From Candidatus Fraserbacteria bacterium (GTDB lineage: Bacteria; Bipolaricaulota; Bipolaricaulia; RBG-16-55-9), in assembly GCA_037443265.1 (NCBI GenBank), contig JBBIOR010000009.1, forward strand, positions 1 through 34,054: a stretch of 34,054 bases of DNA, given 5' to 3'. Shown piece by piece: positions 4,944-16,490 of this stretch; the first letter of the stretch is position 1; each line of letters opens with the position of its first letter. The notes under the pieces were generated by a model, which was given only the letters and a program-made list of their open reading frames with translations, did no database searches and was not told the origin of the DNA. Made by a program: the position numbers and the translations under genes.

Positions 4944-6692
4944 ATGGCCGTGCTCAGGATCGGACTGGCTCAGGTCGATGTCACCGTGGGCGATCTTGAG
5001 GGCAACCTCAGGGTGATCGCAGACTGCCTGGAGTCTGCCCGTGCCGAGGAAGTCGACCTGCTCGTCTTCCCGGAGCTGGCCCTTACGGGGTACCCGCCGG
5101 AAGATCTATTGCTCAACCCCAGCTTCATCGACGCCAATCTCAAGGCCCTCCAGAAGCTCATTCCCCAGACGAAGGGGATCACTCTAGTCGTCGGGTTTGT
5201 CGATCGAGATCGCGATCTCTACAACGCCGCGGCGGTCCTCTCCGATGGGAAATGGGTAGGCACGTACCACAAAGCTAAGCTTCCCAACTACGGCGTCTTC
5301 GATGAATATCGCTACTTCCGGCCCGGCCAGAAGGTTCCCATCTTCACCGACGGGAGAGTTCGCTTGGGGATCACGATCTGCGAAGACCTGTGGCATCCCA
5401 CCGGCCCCATCGAAGCGGAGGTCCGGCAGGGAGGGGCCGATGTGGTGATCAATCTGATGGCCTCCCCCTATCATCGCACCAAGGGGGCGGAGCGCGAGGC
5501 GATGTTCGCCACCCGCGCCCTCGACTATGGAGTGATCGTGGCCTTCTGCAATCACGCGGGTGGACAAGATGAGCTGATCTTCGATGGCAGAAGCAGCATC
5601 TTCACCGCCAACGGAGAGCTACTGGCCCGCGCCAAGAGCTTCGAAGAAGATCTTCTCATGGCCGATGTGGATCTTATAGAGGTCCTTCGCCATCGGCTGC
5701 GGCAGCCCAGACTCCGTCTTGCGCCTACCACAACAGAAGAAGAGTACTCTGTCCCTGAAATTCCCTTGCCCCGCCCTCTGGTGAGTGAGCAGAAATCTTC
5801 TGGGCTCAAGCCACGCATCGCCTTCAGCCCCCAAGGACCGGAGGAGATCTATCGCGCGCTGGTGGTGGGCACCCGCGACTACGTGCAGAAGAACGGCTTC
5901 GAGCGCGTGGCCATCGGCCTCTCCGGCGGGATTGATTCCGCGCTGGTAGCCACGATCGCCGTGGATGCCCTGGGCCCCAAAGACGTGATAGGGGTGTTTA
6001 TGCCCTCGCGCTTCAGTTCCGAGGCCAGCCGCAAAGACGCCCACAAACTCGCAAAGAATTTAAAGATCCGCCTCCTCGAGATCCCGATCGACGAGATCTT
6101 CGATGTGTTTCTGAAGGCTCTGGCACCGTTCCTCGATAAGAAAGCTCCGGGCAAGACGGAAGAGAATTTACAGGCCCGCATCCGCGGGACGCTGCTCATG
6201 GCCCTCTCTAATCGATTCAACTGGTTGGTGCTGGCCACGGGCAACAAGAGCGAGTTCGCCGTGGGCTACGCCACGCTCTATGGAGACACGGCCGGGGGCT
6301 TGGCCGTCCTTAAGGACGTCCCCAAGACGCTCGTCTATGAGCTGGCACGCTGGCGAAATTCTAAAAATCCTGTCATCCCCAAGCGAGTCTTCACTCGCCC
6401 CCCCACGGCGGAGCTGCGCCCCTGCCAGCGCGATGAGGACGATCTTCCAGCCCCCTACAGCGCGCTCGATCCCATTCTCCAGGCCTACGTGGAACAAGAT
6501 CGCAGCCTAAGGGAGATCGTCCAGCAGGGCTTTCCAGCCGATGTCGTGCGCCGCGTGATAGATCTCGTCCATCAGAATGAATACAAGCGCCGCCAATCAC
6601 CCGTGGGCCTAAAGATCACGCCGCGGGCCTTCGGCAAGGATCGAAGATTTCCCATCACGTTGCGCTGGCGCTCAAAGAGCGATGAGCCATGA
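4944..6692 (+). CDS. nadE: Glutamine-dependent NAD+ synthetase
   Basis: Nitrilase-fold domain (FPEL, LPNYGVFDEYRYF, ICEDLW) plus synthetase domain (GLSGGIDSAL, ENLQARIRG, TGNKSE, NEYKRRQ). Confidence 0.97.
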   Translation: MAVLRIGLAQVDVTVGDLEGNLRVIADCLESARAEEVDLLVFPELALTGYPPEDLLLNPSFIDANLKALQKLIPQTKGITLVVGFVDRDRDLYNAAAVLSDGKWVGTYHKAKLPNYGVFDEYRYFRPGQKVPIFTDGRVRLGITICEDLWHPTGPIEAEVRQGGADVVINLMASPYHRTKGAEREAMFATRALDYGVIVAFCNHAGGQDELIFDGRSSIFTANGELLARAKSFEEDLLMADVDLIEVLRHRLRQPRLRLAPTTTEEEYSVPEIPLPRPLVSEQKSSGLKPRIAFSPQGPEEIYRALVVGTRDYVQKNGFERVAIGLSGGIDSALVATIAVDALGPKDVIGVFMPSRFSSEASRKDAHKLAKNLKIRLLEIPIDEIFDVFLKALAPFLDKKAPGKTEENLQARIRGTLLMALSNRFNWLVLATGNKSEFAVGYATLYGDTAGGLAVLKDVPKTLVYELARWRNSKNPVIPKRVFTRPPTAELRPCQRDEDDLPAPYSALDPILQAYVEQDRSLREIVQQGFPADVVRRVIDLVHQNEYKRRQSPVGLKITPRAFGKDRRFPITLRWRSKSDEP

Positions 6693-8194
6693 TCCGGGTC
6701 CAGCGGGCCATCGTCAGCGTCTTCGATAGAACAGGGCTTGAGTCCTTCGCCCGAGGACTGGTGGATTTAAGAATCGAACTCGTCGCCTCCTTGGGCACAG
6801 CCGAGTTTCTCAGAAAGAACGGCCTTCCTGTGCGAGAGGTCTCAGAATATACCGGCCAGCCGCCTCTCTTAGGCGGCCGCGTCAAGACCCTTCACCCCAC
6901 CATATTTGCCGGCATCCTGGCCAAACGAAACGACTCCCGCCAGCTGGAAGAGCTTCACGCCCAAGGGATTGAGCTGATCGATCTTGTGGTCATCAATCTC
7001 TATCCCTTCGAGCTCAAGGTCACAGCGGAGATGCCCCCGGAAGAGGCGATGGAGTGGGTGGACATCGGCGGAGAAGCGCTCATCCGAGCCGCCGCCAAGA
7101 ACTTCTCCTCCGTGGGGGTCATCGTCGACCCCAAAGACTATGAGGCCGTCTTGGATGAGCTTTCCCGTACGGGAGGCCTCAGCTCAAAGACATCTAGATC
7201 CCTAGCCGAGAAGGCGTTTCAGCACGTCGCCCGCTATAACGCCCTAATCGCCCGCTGGTTCTCTGACCATCAGCCTCTGCCGGAGATGTTCACGCTGGCA
7301 GAGCCCAAGCGCCTAGCATTGCGCTATGGCGAAAACCCGCATCAGGTGGGAGCCCTCTACGGGAGAGCGGCTCCTTTTCAACTCCAAGGCAAACCGCTCT
7401 CCTATGTGAACCTCCTCGACGCGGATGCCGCCATCAAGTGCGTCTCTGAATTTGAAAGGCCTACAGCTGTGATCATCAAGCATACGAGCCCCTGCGGAGT
7501 GGCCTCTGCGGCTACTCTCGCTGAGGCATTTGCTAGGGCCTATCAAGCCGACCCGAAGTCCGCCTTTGGAGGGATTGTGGGCGTAAACCGCCCCTTAGAT
7601 GGAGCCACGGCTTCTCTTATGACGCGCCATTTTCTGGAGGTCGCGGTCGCGCCCGATTTTTCAAAAGAGGCGCTTGAGGTGTTGAGCCAGCGAGAGAATC
7701 TCCGCCTGCTGCGCGCCCCAGAGGAGCCCTTTGACGCTCTCGCAGAGCTACGCACCACAGCCTTTGGAGTGCTGGTGCAGACCCCCAGCTCGGAGGAGCT
7801 CAGCGAGCACGATCTGCAATGCGTGACAAAGAGGCACCCTACGCCGGAGCAGATGAAAGATTTATTCTTCGCGTGGAAAGTGGTAAAGCACGTCAAGTCG
7901 AACGCGATTGTGCTAGCGAAAGAGGAGCAGACGGTGGGCATCGGCGGAGGCCAAGTGAGCCGCGTGGACGCCACGGAGATGGCCGTCCGCAAAGCTGGAA
8001 AGAAAGCGCGGGGCAGCGTACTTGCCTCCGATGCGTTTCTCCCGTTCAAAGACAACGTGGAGATCGCAGCTGGTGGGGGAGTGGCAGCGATCATCCAACC
8101 CGGCGGCTCTCTTCGCGATGCCGAAGTCATCCAAGCAGCCGAAGAGCATGGGATCGCGATGATATTTACCCGTATCCGCGAGTTCCGACACTGA
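6689..8194 (+). CDS. purH: Bifunctional AICAR transformylase/IMP cyclohydrolase
   Basis: GGRVKTLHP, NLYPF, DIGG, LRYGENPHQ, SAFGG, KSNAIV, ASDAF, IIQPGGS, FRH terminus; 4-bp overlap with nadE. Confidence 0.97.
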   Translation: MIRVQRAIVSVFDRTGLESFARGLVDLRIELVASLGTAEFLRKNGLPVREVSEYTGQPPLLGGRVKTLHPTIFAGILAKRNDSRQLEELHAQGIELIDLVVINLYPFELKVTAEMPPEEAMEWVDIGGEALIRAAAKNFSSVGVIVDPKDYEAVLDELSRTGGLSSKTSRSLAEKAFQHVARYNALIARWFSDHQPLPEMFTLAEPKRLALRYGENPHQVGALYGRAAPFQLQGKPLSYVNLLDADAAIKCVSEFERPTAVIIKHTSPCGVASAATLAEAFARAYQADPKSAFGGIVGVNRPLDGATASLMTRHFLEVAVAPDFSKEALEVLSQRENLRLLRAPEEPFDALAELRTTAFGVLVQTPSSEELSEHDLQCVTKRHPTPEQMKDLFFAWKVVKHVKSNAIVLAKEEQTVGIGGGQVSRVDATEMAVRKAGKKARGSVLASDAFLPFKDNVEIAAGGGVAAIIQPGGSLRDAEVIQAAEEHGIAMIFTRIREFRH

Positions 8195-8625
8195 CTGACA
8201 CGGCCACCGTGGTGTCAGCTTAAGACCCTGAGAGGAGGAAGGCAGGTGGGAAGGCGGGGAGGGCGCCCCGCCTTCCCGGGAATGAGGTTAGCAACCACAG
8301 AAGGGGTGTCGGTTTCCCTCGCCCATGGGGACTCGAACCCCGGCCGGCCCTCGGACTGGGGAAAAATCCGTGCTGAAGGAGGTTGGCGAGAACAGCGCGG
8401 CAAAACCCTGGTCCCACAGAGCCGGCTGACACCTGGTCACGGACTTGCACTCCCTCCTATGAGCGATCATCCCCTCGATCCTACCCCTGCCGCGGCGGAG
8501 GACGAAGGACCCCGGTTCGCCGCGGAGTGCGAATTGGTCAGGATCTGAGGTGCTCGGTGTCCCTCAGGGGGTCTTCGATCACTCTGGGGGGTTCCCCTCC
8601 TGAGCGCACCGAATTCTAAAATACC
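8195..8625 (-). ncRNA. Highly structured ncRNA candidate, OLE-like (compact)
   Basis: Many nested stems (plus coordinates): 8538-43/8598-603, 8545-50/8562-67, 8447-53/8524-30, 8490-97/8518-25, 8305-10/8428-33, 8343-51/8418-26, 8353-56/8411-14, 8368-75/8393-400, T-loop hairpin 8327-41, 12-bp 8248-59/8266-77. Minus-strand motifs resemble my recollection of the OLE consensus; unverified. Confidence 0.5.
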
Positions 8626-8670
8626 TGCGGTGGAAAAACCATGACCGCCAGGTGAAAATTCGGTGAAAGT

Positions 8671-9129
8671 TCAAGGGCCTTCGCCGTTGCTGCTCTGCGC
8701 CGGCAGCTCCGAAATCCGCCAGTAGTCCAGCACCGTCTCGATCACCTTGGCGAACTCTGCCGAGCTGGGGGGTTTGGTGATATACCCTGAAGCGCCCGAG
8801 TTGTAGGCCTTGACCATGTCCTCCTCGCGCTCACTGATGGTGAGCACAATCACGGGAATCCGGCGCAGACTCTCGTCTCTCTTGATCTCTGCCAGCACCT
8901 CATGCCCGTTGACTTTGGGCAGCTTAAGATCCAGCAGGATGAGATCGGGCCGGGGCGCATCTTTAAAATTCTTGCGGCGGCGCAGGAAGTCCAGCGCTTC
9001 CTGACCGTCCCGCACGATGAACAGCTCGCTTTTGTCCTTCATGTTCGCCTTCTGGAGCGAGCGCTCGGCAATTAAAATGTCCTCCGGGTTGTCCTCCACT
9101 AGGAGGATGCGCAGCTTTTTGAGTTTCAT
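8671..9129 (-). CDS. Single-domain response regulator (Rcp1-like receiver)
   Basis: ILLVEDNPED, PDLILLDLKLPKVNG, IPVIVLT, YITKP; GGAGG RBS before MKLKKLR. Confidence 0.93.
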   Translation of the reverse strand: MKLKKLRILLVEDNPEDILIAERSLQKANMKDKSELFIVRDGQEALDFLRRRKNFKDAPRPDLILLDLKLPKVNGHEVLAEIKRDESLRRIPVIVLTISEREEDMVKAYNSGASGYITKPPSSAEFAKVIETVLDYWRISELPAQSSNGEGP

Positions 9130-9151
9130 AGAGAACCTCCCCTCCTCTGGT

Positions 9152-10936
9152 TCACTGCGTGTGATGGACATGCGCCAGCACGCGAGCCCGCTTGGGCACC
9201 GTGAAATAGAACGTACTACCCTGCCCTAGCTGGGATTCCACCCAGATCCGCCCACCTAGCTCGCTCATGATGCGCTTGCAAATCGCCAAACCCGCCCCGG
9301 TGCTCTCGGGATCTTCCCCGCGCGGGTTCAGCCGCTCAAAGAGCTCAAAGATTCGATCTTGATACTGCGCTTCGATGCCTATACCGTTGTCACGCACGTG
9401 GAAGATGAACTCATCCACTTGCTCCTCAAGTCCAATCTGAACCCACTTTTCGGGCTTGTCATTGTATTTGACCGCATTCGAGATGAGATTGGAAAAGAGC
9501 TCGGCCATGCGGGTGCGGTTGGCCACCACCACCGGCAGCTCCTGGGGAAGCTCCAGCTGAACTCCCTCCAGCAGCGCTCCCAGATCCTCACGCACCTCGG
9601 CCAGCACCGCTTTTAGATCCACAGGCTCCAGCGGCTCGCGCTTGGTCCCGATGCTCGCCAGCTTCAAAAGATCATCGATGAGATTCTTCATGCGCACGGA
9701 AGAACGCTGCAGCGACTCGAGATAGCCTAGCCCCTGCTCATCCAGCTTGTCTTTGTAATCTTCAATCAAAAACTGTGTGAAAGCCTGGATCGTGCGCAAG
9801 GGCTGCTTGAGATCATGCGAGACGACGTGCGAGAACTCTTCTAATTTCTTGTTGCTCTCCTCCAGCCTCTTCGTCTTTTCCAGAAGCTCGCGCTCCAGCT
9901 TCTTCAGCTCTGTAAGATCGATATAGTGATCGATCCGTCCGCCCCGATAACGCTCCGTCTCAACGGGGGTGGAGCGGAACTCTAGAATGCGCTCGTCAAA
10001 GCCGTCGCGCAGCGTAAAGACAAAGCTCTCTTCGCCCGCCTCTAAGATTCGCTCCAAGGCGCTTACGTCGGCCAGGCGCGGCTGCACTTTAGAGAGCATC
10101 CTTCGCAGATCGACCCCGATGAGCTCATCCCGGTCGAGATTGAAGAGATACCCCAGGGTCTGATTGGCCCAGATGACCTGCTTATCTCGATCTAATAAGA
10201 CGATGCCCGTATCCAGGGTATCGATGGCGTCTTCGATGAGATAGCGATAGCGGGCCTCAGCCTCCCAGAGCTTGCGCTCCAGCTCTAGACGATCGGAAAG
10301 ATCATGGATCTCTACACAGATCTGATCGGGAGCGATCCTCCTCATGCGAATGTCGGAGGGGAGAGTCTCTTTGTCCCAGGAGACGGCCCGGAGTTTGAGC
10401 CCCTTGGCCTCCCCCAGGGTGGCCGCCCGCTCCAGCTCAGAGCGGGCACGTTCTAGATCGTCAATGTGTATGAACTCACAGAAGTGTTTTACAGACCCCA
10501 AGAGCTCCACGGCCCGGTCGTTGCGCTCCAGCACCTTTCCGCTGGGGTCGACGATGAGCATGGGATTGAGCGCCTTCTGAAAGATCTCGGCCGGGTAGGA
10601 CTTGGGTCGCTTAGGCGCTGGATGTCTTTTCCGTTCGCGCCGGTTGATCCAGCCGATCCCACCTCCGACGAGCACAGCGGCCAAGCCAAAGAGAGCTACG
10701 GCCCCGAGGGAGGAGCTCTCGGCCGGCAGGAACGGCAGCGCCACAAGAAAAGTCAGCCCTCCCAAGAGCACCCCGCCGAGCACCTCCCAGAAGAACGCGT
10801 TGATCAGCAAAGCCATCCCCAACAGGGCAAAGACCATCTTGGGCGAACGGATCTCCAAGCCCCAAAGGAACAGGCTGATCAGAGCATAGACCGCAAGCGT
10901 GGCGAGGAGTTTCCAGATCCGTGCTAGCCCATTCAT
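9152..10936 (-). CDS. Membrane PAS-PAS sensor histidine kinase
   Basis: N-terminal TM helices, two PAS-like segments, H-box SHDLKQPL, N-box NLISNAVKY, G-boxes DNGIGI and GAGLAIC. Confidence 0.93.
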   Translation of the reverse strand: MNGLARIWKLLATLAVYALISLFLWGLEIRSPKMVFALLGMALLINAFFWEVLGGVLLGGLTFLVALPFLPAESSSLGAVALFGLAAVLVGGGIGWINRRERKRHPAPKRPKSYPAEIFQKALNPMLIVDPSGKVLERNDRAVELLGSVKHFCEFIHIDDLERARSELERAATLGEAKGLKLRAVSWDKETLPSDIRMRRIAPDQICVEIHDLSDRLELERKLWEAEARYRYLIEDAIDTLDTGIVLLDRDKQVIWANQTLGYLFNLDRDELIGVDLRRMLSKVQPRLADVSALERILEAGEESFVFTLRDGFDERILEFRSTPVETERYRGGRIDHYIDLTELKKLERELLEKTKRLEESNKKLEEFSHVVSHDLKQPLRTIQAFTQFLIEDYKDKLDEQGLGYLESLQRSSVRMKNLIDDLLKLASIGTKREPLEPVDLKAVLAEVREDLGALLEGVQLELPQELPVVVANRTRMAELFSNLISNAVKYNDKPEKWVQIGLEEQVDEFIFHVRDNGIGIEAQYQDRIFELFERLNPRGEDPESTGAGLAICKRIMSELGGRIWVESQLGQGSTFYFTVPKRARVLAHVHHTQ

Positions 10937-11086: not shown

Positions 11087-11836
11087 TTAGATGATCAAGT
11101 TCTCATTGAGCGTAAACGGGAAAGGCTCGGCCATCTTCTGGAGACTCTCGGGATCGAGCACGGAGATCGCCCGGTCGTTGACGGTGATCACCCCGCGATC
11201 TTCAAGCTCGCCCAACGTTCGAATGGCCGTCTTGGAGGAGACGCCTGCCATCTCGGCCAGCTCCGTGCGCGACAGCTCAATGCCCGTCTCTCCCAGTTTG
11301 AGGATGATCCGAGCCAAGCGCTCCTTGCTCCCGTTGTAGGAGCGTTCGGCCAGCTTGCATTGAAACGCTTTTAGTTCTTCGGAGAGCTTTTCGAACATGC
11401 GGAAGATCACCGGCGGGTGACGCTCCAAGAAATTGAAGAAGTCTCCACGTTCCAAGAAACCCACTTCAGATTTCGTCAGGGTCTTGGCATAGGCAATGTG
11501 GACGCCCTTGTCGAAGAGGGTCGTCTCGCCGATGGTCTCGGCTGGGCCGACCAGCTTTAAAATCTGCTTTTTGCCCCCTAGAGTGCGCTTGACGAGCTTC
11601 ACCCGTCCATCAAATACGAGATAGAACCCGAAGGCCGGAGCACCTTCTTGGAAGATGATCTCACCTTGACCGTACTTGATGCGGCGGACCATGCCTTCTA
11701 ACTGAGCCAGATCTTTGGGACCCAGATCGGAGAAGATTTTGAAATCCCGAAGTTCGGTCATCCCTCTCACCACCCGCTTAAGATGGATGTCTTCTGTGCT
11801 GGGCGTATTATGCCCTAAGTCCCCGGCCTCTGTCAA
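11087..11836 (-). CDS. Crp/Fnr-family transcriptional regulator
   Basis: cNMP-binding fold (GEIIFQEG...GRVKL...IGE) and C-terminal HTH (SRTELAEMAGVS); start may instead be ATG at 11761. Confidence 0.9.
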   Translation of the reverse strand: MTEAGDLGHNTPSTEDIHLKRVVRGMTELRDFKIFSDLGPKDLAQLEGMVRRIKYGQGEIIFQEGAPAFGFYLVFDGRVKLVKRTLGGKKQILKLVGPAETIGETTLFDKGVHIAYAKTLTKSEVGFLERGDFFNFLERHPPVIFRMFEKLSEELKAFQCKLAERSYNGSKERLARIILKLGETGIELSRTELAEMAGVSSKTAIRTLGELEDRGVITVNDRAISVLDPESLQKMAEPFPFTLNENLII

Positions 11837-16413: not shown

Positions 16414-16417
16414 GGGG

Positions 16418-16490
16418 TGGGTCGGGAGGGACTCGAACCCCCAACCTGACGGTTAAGAGCCGCCTGCTCTGCCAGTTGAGCTACCGACCC
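16418..16490 (-). tRNA. tRNA-Lys(CTT)
   Basis: GGGTCGGTAGCTCAACTGGCAGAGCAGGCGGCT-CTT-AACCGTCAGGTTGGGGGTTCGAGTCCCTCCCGACCCA folds as a cloverleaf; followed by CCC, so CCA is not fully encoded. Confidence 0.97.

Follow-up and report, generated by a model that had tools for sequence, protein, structure and literature searches.

A previously undescribed structured RNA of Bipolaricaulota with an anti-Shine-Dalgarno sequence in its apical loop

We analysed a 34,054-nucleotide (nt) stretch of DNA from Candidatus Fraserbacteria bacterium (contig JBBIOR010000009.1 of assembly GCA_037443265.1, positions 1 to 34,054; hereafter the window) and, within it, the gap between a purH-type gene and a response-regulator gene. 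The gap holds a conserved and covarying structured RNA that belongs to no Rfam family. The class of RNA that it represents is confined to the phylum Bipolaricaulota (Acetothermia/OP1) and previously undescribed; a literature search, with thin coverage of subscription journals, found no description of it. We are highly confident that this is a real structured RNA gene. The best explanation overall, which we hold with moderate confidence, is a new RNA of ~375 nt, restricted to Bipolaricaulota, whose anti-Shine-Dalgarno (anti-SD) loop acts in trans. An earlier note on this DNA had preferred to see a minimal member of the OLE class in the gap and had named a new RNA class as the alternative. It is the alternative that the evidence bears out.

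New classes of large, highly structured bacterial RNA are rare, and the biochemistry of OLE, ROOL, GOLLD and raiA is still lacking. The RNA described here is found in most sampled genomes of an uncultivated phylum, covaries very strongly and has no match among the 4,227 families of Rfam. Its combination of a T-loop/D-loop pair with an anti-SD sequence is an arrangement that has not been described before. It leads to a testable hypothesis of 16S-3'-end mimicry, and the RNA could be used as an annotation marker for Bipolaricaulota genomes.

Conservation and covariation of the core

With the minus strand of the gap as query, blastn finds matches in 34 of 41 related genomes and in 56 of 184 genomes across the phylum; a core at about 8228-8414 is the part conserved furthest. 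A covariance model of the core, R1 (149 positions, 33 pairs), matches 99 of 151 phylum genomes and reaches all 11 families sampled, numbered here f1 to f11. By family, the genomes matched are 8/8 in f1, 1/1 in f2, 4/4 in f3, 3/3 in f4, 16/16 in f5, 1/1 in f6, 1/1 in f7, 22/55 in f8, 25/43 in f9, 13/14 in f10 and 4/4 in f11.

Searches with exact patterns across 185,579 species point to the same phylum. An exact core pattern returned 25 stretches, all of them in metagenome-assembled genomes (MAGs) whose titles either name Bipolaricaulota, Acetothermia or Fraserbacteria or are loose. A broader pattern, with the T-loop and the invariant strand of the 3' junction, AUGGGCGAGGGAAACC, as its anchors, returned 85 stretches; the 80 that were listed are all MAGs of the Bipolaricaulota group or loosely labelled, and viral contigs yielded no match. 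Two of the listed matches are titled Neomarinimicrobiota and many are titled 'uncultured Thermotogae', and these appear to coincide with contigs of genomes in the phylum set. The public labels of such MAGs look unreliable.

Inside a closing helix, P1, the core runs in the order AGUCCG, a hairpin resembling the D-arm of transfer RNA (tRNA), a long arm, a T-arm and the invariant GGGCGAGGGAAACC strand (Table 1). Positions conserved in at least 95% of 46 cores aligned with R1 comprise AGUCC, a G of the D-like loop, the apical CCUCCU, parts of the T-loop and A.GGGC.AGGG.AACC.

Our hand-drawn version of this core structure, with 34 pairs, is based on a MAFFT alignment of 29 distinct sequences. Both sides change in 21 of the 34 pairs, 87.3% of cells are paired as against 33.7-49.1% when partners are slid, and four of five measures were unmatched by any of 500 shuffles. 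For the 46 R1-aligned cores the figures are higher: both-side changes in 29 of 33 pairs, 89.4% of cells paired (28.7-49.1% slid), and no shuffle out of 500 matching any of the five measures. For the long arm, helices 2, 4 and 5 of the R1-aligned cores carry compensatory changes in 5/6, 7/7 and 8/8 pairs, respectively. In the D-like stem, GAC/GUC is exchanged for GGC/GCC and CGAC/GUCG.

The strings quoted by the earlier note are all present on the minus strand, and much of the nest of stems that it drew there holds. Its inner helices, GCCGGC (8426-8421) with GCCGGC (8348-8343) and GGAC with GUCC, covary in relatives, as does the GGG/CCC helix with its U-rich internal loop; the T-loop hairpin GGGG-UUCGAGU-CCCC (8341-8327) has a covarying stem as well. 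The outer stem, GGUGUC/GACACC, does not survive comparison. GUGUC is the 3' strand of the conserved hairpin UGAC-CAGGU-GUCA (8439-8427), and relatives have no GACACC partner. The note had also called for a comparison of related intergenic regions, and there the conservation proves to be phylum-wide and accompanied by compensatory changes.

The U-rich internal loop (GGGUUUUGCC, 8408-8399, opposite GGAUUUUUCCCC, 8369-8358) was considered as a universal feature or triple-helix clamp and rejected, since f8 and f9 have another sequence there while GGGAAACC stays. RNAalifold on the MAFFT alignment offers another pairing, of UUUCCC in this loop (~8362-8357) with GGGAAA in the 3' junction strand (~8318-8313), alignment columns 98-103 with 144-149. 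It might represent a second fold or else a contact at the tertiary level. Both segments are invariant, and the pairing is impossible in families that lack the U-rich loop.

P1 joins a purine-rich strand just 5' of the core to a pyrimidine-rich strand directly after GGGAAACC, and its sequence differs from family to family. Cognate strands pair with a mean energy of -20.1 kcal/mol, compared with -16.8 kcal/mol for non-cognate combinations (3 of the 46 sequences were dropped from this test, their core matches being incomplete). Two further purine stretches in the window could vie for the 3' strand of P1. We set aside two other pairings. The first, P1 with the 5'-terminal CAGGAGGGG as partner, is possible in this genus as an alternative; relatives have their partner strand immediately 5' of the core. 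The second, an 'acceptor-like' pairing of CGCUC with GGGCG that RNAalifold draws on the full alignment, has invariant sides, crosses P1 and lacks its 5' partner in f8 and f11.

Could the structure be a chance fold, or the gap a small protein-coding gene? GC-rich DNA folds well by chance, and on each strand the gap overlaps open frames that are 60-100 codons long. Single-sequence folding against shuffles gives z = -3.06 for the minus strand and -3.55 for the plus strand, modest values that are alike on both strands, and folding alone therefore proves little. The case for more than chance is made by conservation and covariation. Most insertions and deletions that set the gap apart from close relatives span 1-2 nt, and homologues share no frame that is open throughout, from which it follows that the RNA region is not coding; the 100-amino-acid (aa) open frame has no Pfam match. 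Against phylum-wide conservation with compensatory changes, we give either a chance fold or a coding gene almost no weight.

Strand, transcription and gene context

We assign the RNA to the minus strand because of its promoters and of the orientation of the T-loop, which is readable on this strand only. Transcription is predicted to start ~6-9 nt downstream of the -10-like TAGAAT, near 8604-8609, which places the start of the RNA about 60 nt past the stop codon of the response-regulator gene. In distant homologues, promoters are found ~180 nt ahead of the core in the orientation of the RNA: TTGACA-16-TATAAT, a match of 12/12, and TTGACA-17-TATACT, a match of 11/12. These complete sigma-70 promoters belong to families f11 and f8, in which the gene contexts of the RNA differ. 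Among 27 unique homologues the length of the RNA ranges from 333 to 424 nt. The estimate of ~430 nt in the earlier note gives way to a predicted ~374 nt.

The -10 box is preceded by a block of TTTCAC(C)-type repeats, of which the first two stand 11 nt apart. These repeats are absent from families with a canonical TTGACA -35 element. The block may be an activator or regulator site, or a region of promoter recognition.

The gap is flanked by the purH-type gene (6689-8194, plus strand; AICARFT/IMPCHase by Pfam) and by the gene for a 166-aa receiver-only response regulator (8671-9171, minus strand). Upstream of the latter on the minus strand, Pfam identifies a PAS histidine kinase (9152-10936) and a Crp-family regulator (11087-11836). 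Ten loci from the order and family f7 were examined. In 8 of them the RNA has a receiver-only response regulator as its immediate upstream neighbour on the same strand, and in 5 of these 8 a histidine kinase lies further upstream. The downstream gene varies by lineage and may be purH, a gene for an FG-GAP protein, or an RNase-H-like gene with TsaE. Neighbours of the f11 and f8 loci are unrelated to those in the window, and among the loci examined no protein gene is conservedly linked to the RNA outside one order.

This arrangement raises the alternative that the RNA is a cis-acting 3' untranslated region or regulatory element of the histidine-kinase/response-regulator operon, to which the recurrent upstream genes and the short distance from the stop codon would be suited. 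However, the interval from the stop codon to the RNA contains a conserved -10 box, the f11 and f8 loci combine other contexts with full sigma-70 promoters, and throughout the phylum the RNA is conserved far more strongly than the adjoining coding sequence. We judge a cis-acting element very unlikely. We read the locus as an independent RNA gene whose product probably acts in trans and which appears to be tied to a two-component system in one order.

Comparison with known RNAs and a possible mode of action

Rfam 15, the release searched, includes OLE as RF01071 with a gathering score of 50 bits. Run over the whole window at gathering thresholds, it gives no match in the gap and none to OLE. At an expectation value (E) of 10 or below, the region 8100-8760 has eleven Rfam matches on its two strands, all at chance level, and none is to OLE, 6S, tRNA, transfer-messenger RNA (tmRNA), RNase P or a riboswitch. 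The models of YrlA (RF02553), tRNA (RF00005) and tmRNA (RF00023) return nothing in that region at E<=10, and a mascRNA match on the T-arm, at 14 bits, is at chance level. The Rfam check proposed by the earlier note, with OLE and 6S included, thus finds nothing at the locus.

Beyond the locus, extending the OLE search to the entire genome gives nothing at E<=10 (control genomes are also without OLE), and at E<=5 the model has no match in 16 homologous loci, which match no other Rfam family either. The 6S RNA model (RF00013) matches nowhere in the genome. The genes for RNase P RNA, tmRNA and signal recognition particle RNA were located elsewhere in the genome with their family models (tmRNA on other contigs only), and the gap RNA is therefore not a divergent form of any of these. 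Kinship with RNase P was rejected on sequence as well, the only stretch in common with the RNase P RNA of this genome being one 7-mer, AAGUCCG.

OLE, which usually has the gene of its partner OapA next to it, deserves separate consideration. PMC11332333 describes OLE RNAs as ~600 nt long, with 2,822 of 2,846 matches in Bacillota; in it OapA is indispensable to OLE, MpfA is anticorrelated with OLE, and shortened OLE variants are on record. PMC12054373 places in P6 of OLE a CCUCCU that mimics the anti-SD, is paired to an SD-like strand and binds bS21. There are likenesses to the gap RNA. Both are large, ornate, lineage-restricted non-coding RNAs of extremophile or anaerobe lineages, both carry a CCUCCU copy of the anti-SD, and a shortened OLE would not be unprecedented.

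The differences are nevertheless considerable. Set beside OLE, the gap RNA belongs to Bipolaricaulota rather than Bacillota, measures ~375 rather than ~600 nt, and has its CCUCCU in an apical loop, whereas that of OLE is base-paired in P6. It has a T-loop/D-loop core; the word 'T-loop' occurs 0 times in PMC12286853, and we found no description of a T-loop in OLE. No small OapA-like CNNM match was found: Pfam searches of 21 of the 32 open reading frames of the window reveal no membrane CNNM-like protein, and the CNNM model PF01595, which has a weak resemblance to OapA, finds only two open frames, of 440 and 507 aa (153 and 97 bits), both on contigs other than that of the window. By their length and score, these two genes would fit MpfA-type proteins.

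The motifs that the earlier note ascribed to OLE lie partly outside the RNA. 'UUUAGAAU' covers the -10-like TAGAAT (8618-8613), upstream of the RNA, and the 3' motif 'UAAGC' (~8225) is part of a flank without conservation, past the point where the conserved 3' end is reached. Given the failure of the OLE model, the other phylum and size, the looped CCUCCU and a genome in which no bS21 was found, the resemblance is at most functional, in the display of an anti-SD. The gap RNA is very probably not a member of OLE, and a remote, shortened OLE in a new phylum seems to us highly improbable.

A second set of likenesses is to tRNA. The helix order recalls a cloverleaf (closing stem, D-like hairpin, long arm, T-arm), and with tRNA-like modules such as the tRNA-like domain of tmRNA, YrlA and mascRNA the gap RNA shares a UUCRANY T-arm and a GG-loop hairpin at the position of the D-arm. 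Unlike these modules, it is invisible to ARAGORN and to the tRNA, tmRNA and YrlA models, has no CCA end and carries a 16-nt invariant strand between the T-arm and the closing helix. A Ro60/TROVE gene, which would have favoured a Y-RNA, was not found in the genome.

GG is present in the D-like loop of 42 of the 46 cores, and the 7-nt T-loop fits UUCRANY in 41. A deviant T-loop is found in three of the four sequences without GG and in two of the 42 with it (Fisher p = 0.0025, for relatives that are not independent). That the loss of GG accompanies a deviant T-loop fits a tRNA-type elbow contact, which the two loops may form.

The long arm ends in an apical loop of 17-18 nt (8392-8375) that is unpaired in the minimum-free-energy fold and contains CCUCCU in 46 of 46 aligned cores. 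The 3' end of the genome's own 16S rRNA is GGAUCACCUCCUUUCU (contig C19), and the loop is identical to it over 8 nt. We found no partner for CCUCCU within the RNA; candidate purine stretches vary and the loop is constant.

These features suggest how the RNA might work. Contact between the D-like loop and the T-loop would create an elbow like that of tRNA and hold the long arm in place. Acting in trans, alone or as a ribonucleoprotein, the RNA could use its exposed anti-SD loop, perhaps together with a CCUCC-rich tail, to pair with mRNAs at their SD regions or to engage factors that recognise the 3' end of 16S rRNA. Such contacts might modulate translation initiation, and in this order the adjoining pair of histidine kinase and receiver-only response regulator could exert control. 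We offer an anti-SD-based mechanism tentatively, as a possibility that falls somewhat short of probable. Quite doubtful, if more far-reaching, is the idea that this tRNA-shaped RNA, with an anti-SD in the place of the anticodon and a CCUCCUU 16S-like tail in several families, mimics the 16S 3' end as a molecule in its own right. In that case it would compete with the 30S subunit for SD regions, or for initiation or maturation factors, as a global throttle on translation initiation, under two-component control in one order.

Small RNAs of the RoxS/RsaE type pair C-rich loops with Shine-Dalgarno regions. Like them, the gap RNA exposes a C-rich loop complementary to ribosome-binding sites of the GGAGG type. 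In contrast to them, it is three to four times larger, has a covarying multi-helix core and invariant junctions, carries an exact anti-SD with little target selectivity and matches no small-RNA family of Rfam.

Several observations weigh against the explanation that we prefer. CCUCCU complements nearly every SD, so no target selectivity is obvious, and bS21 was not found in this genome (1.69 Mb, 88% complete). The R1-aligned set was fitted to the model and so favours the structure, and RNAalifold on the MAFFT alignment yields only the D-like hairpin and the T-arm. All P1 strands are purine- or pyrimidine-rich, and non-cognate strands consequently bind too, 404 of 1772 such combinations equalling the cognate ones. 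The count of G.U against A.C cells, 41 vs 51, does not decide the strand; 25 of the A.C cells come from one doubtful pair and others from column shifts. A scan of the window for sigma-70 promoters and intrinsic terminators found none. No canonical -35 element was found; the conserved TTTCCAC block and the -10 box are separated by ~12 nt, where 17 nt would be standard. Both ends of the RNA are predictions.

The main rival to a trans-acting anti-SD RNA is a ribozyme or a protein-scaffolding RNA, with the junction strands (AGUCCG and GGGCGAGGGAAACC) as active site or platform and CCUCCU engaged in a contact, intramolecular or with a protein, that has nothing to do with SD pairing. The most invariant positions do lie in the multi-helix junction and not in the loop alone, and the RNA is large and ornate compared with base-pairing regulators. 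Size and conservation of this kind tend toward ribozymes according to Breaker and colleagues (PMC11332333). The weaker extra core or arm-only copies in some genomes and the possible additional pairing of UUUCCC with GGGAAA would also agree with it. Yet the CCUCCU loop has no partner inside the RNA, no companion protein gene is conserved outside one order, and the sequence suggests neither a chemistry nor a substrate. We regard a ribozyme or scaffold as unlikely, with enough in its favour to be taken seriously.

Flanking domains, additional copies and other features

Around the core, the RNA varies more from lineage to lineage (Table 1). The 5' domain differs in f8 and f11. At the 3' side, the arrangement in the order is GGUUGCUAACCUCAUU, a covarying GC-rich hairpin and then a CCUGCCUUCCUCC tail. 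Three pairs of alignment columns in this hairpin covary (430/456, 434/452 and 438/448), and the hairpin does not fit the consensus of a terminator. In f8 and f11, UCUUCCCUCCUU follows P1 in place of GGUUGCUAACCUCAUU, and f9 has a CUCCUCCUUUC-like tail. Homologues in f5 (L013-L020, e.g. L014:1302-1725 (+)) contain an additional hairpin of ~42 nt between the 3' strand of P1 and GGUGGUUGCUAACC, the apical part of which is again CCCUCCUCC.

Table 1. Coordinates of the RNA, its upstream elements and the long-arm copies elsewhere in the genome; positions are those of the window unless a contig is given.
Feature	Position	Strand	Basis or remark
Upstream block, three direct TTTCAC(C)-type repeats	8668-8662, 8658-8651, 8638-8629	-	position kept in the order
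-10-like hexamer TAGAAT	8613-8618	-	TANNNT in the same column in 26/27 unique order-level homologues
Predicted full RNA, ~374 nt	8234-8607	-	conservation from just past the -10 box to the CCUGCCUUCC tail
Variable 5' domain, several hairpins	8461-8607	-	motifs conserved at order level only
5'-domain hairpin CUGAGG-GACACCGAGCA-CCUCAG	8545-8567	-	stem varies compensatorily among relatives
5'-domain motif GUCCUU	within 8513-8503	-	order-level conservation
5'-domain motif GAUGAUCGCUCA	8471-8460	-	order-level conservation
P1 5' strand AUAGGAGGG, purine-rich	8452-8460	-	pairs with 8306-8297
Junction element AGUCCG, near-invariant phylum-wide	8440-8445	-	AGUCC at least 95% in 46 sequences
D-arm-like hairpin UGAC-CAGGU-GUCA, 4-bp stem, 5-nt loop with GG	8427-8439	-	covariation
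Long arm: GCCGGC/GCCGGC, GGAC/GUCC, GGG/CCC, U-rich internal loop, apical stem GCGCUG/CAGCAC, apical loop	8343-8426	-	
Apical-loop AACCUCCUU	8376-8384	-	ACCUCCUU common to the 3' end of the genome's own 16S
T-arm GGGG-UUCGAGU-CCCC	8327-8341	-	stem covaries, GC with CG, UA, AU
Junction strand AUGGGCGAGGGAAACC, near-invariant phylum-wide	8311-8326	-	conservation in 46 cores
P1 3' strand CCCCUUCUGU, pyrimidine-rich	8297-8306	-	pairs with 8460-8452
3' extension GGUUGCUAACCUCAUU	8281-8296	-	conserved in the order
Terminal GC-rich hairpin GGGAAGGCGGGG-CGCCCU-CCCCGCCUUCCC, no U tract	8248-8277	-	stem covaries
Pyrimidine 3' tail ACCUGCCUUCCUCC	8234-8247	-	kept through CCUGCCU(U/C)C, relatives diverge beyond
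Long-arm module copy, L114:1501-1627	G000 C1:107726-107852	-	
Long-arm module copy, L116:1501-1558	C29:3972-4029	-	
Long-arm module copy, L115:1501-1556	C1:38677-38732	+	
Long-arm module copy, L117:1501-1664	C10:47974-48137	-	
Long-arm module copy, L118:1501-1552	C16:17786-17837	-	

Many genomes have one high-scoring copy of the core together with weaker additional R1 matches. One genome (G036) carries two full-length cores, at 141.5 and 117.2 bits (L103:1501-1649 and L169:451-590); another (G013) has a core at 162.8 bits and two at 75, a third (G035) has five matches, and G010 is likewise multi-copy. With several full-length cores in a genome, whole-core paralogues therefore exist.

In the genome of the window, the long-arm module (CCAGGGUUUUGCC, stem, loop, GGAUUUUUCCCCAG) is repeated at five or six other sites. 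Three of these extra copies have a CCUCC-type loop, one has a TATAAT box upstream, and all are without a match in Rfam. A longer common element, closed by a long-range helix, contains the C1 and C29 copies; the elements sit between same-strand genes (hemL/serC-like; E1-alpha-like) and are antisense to them.

Two further features of the window stand apart from the RNA. Right behind the stop codon of purH comes a perfect hairpin, CUGACAC-N-GUGUCAG (8195-8218). Neither strand shows a U tract there, and the hairpin, which falls within the span that the earlier note assigned to its RNA, is not kept in relatives. The sole ARAGORN match in the window is a tRNA-Lys (CTT) at 16416-16490 on the minus strand, which is also the sole Rfam match at gathering threshold (16418-16490).

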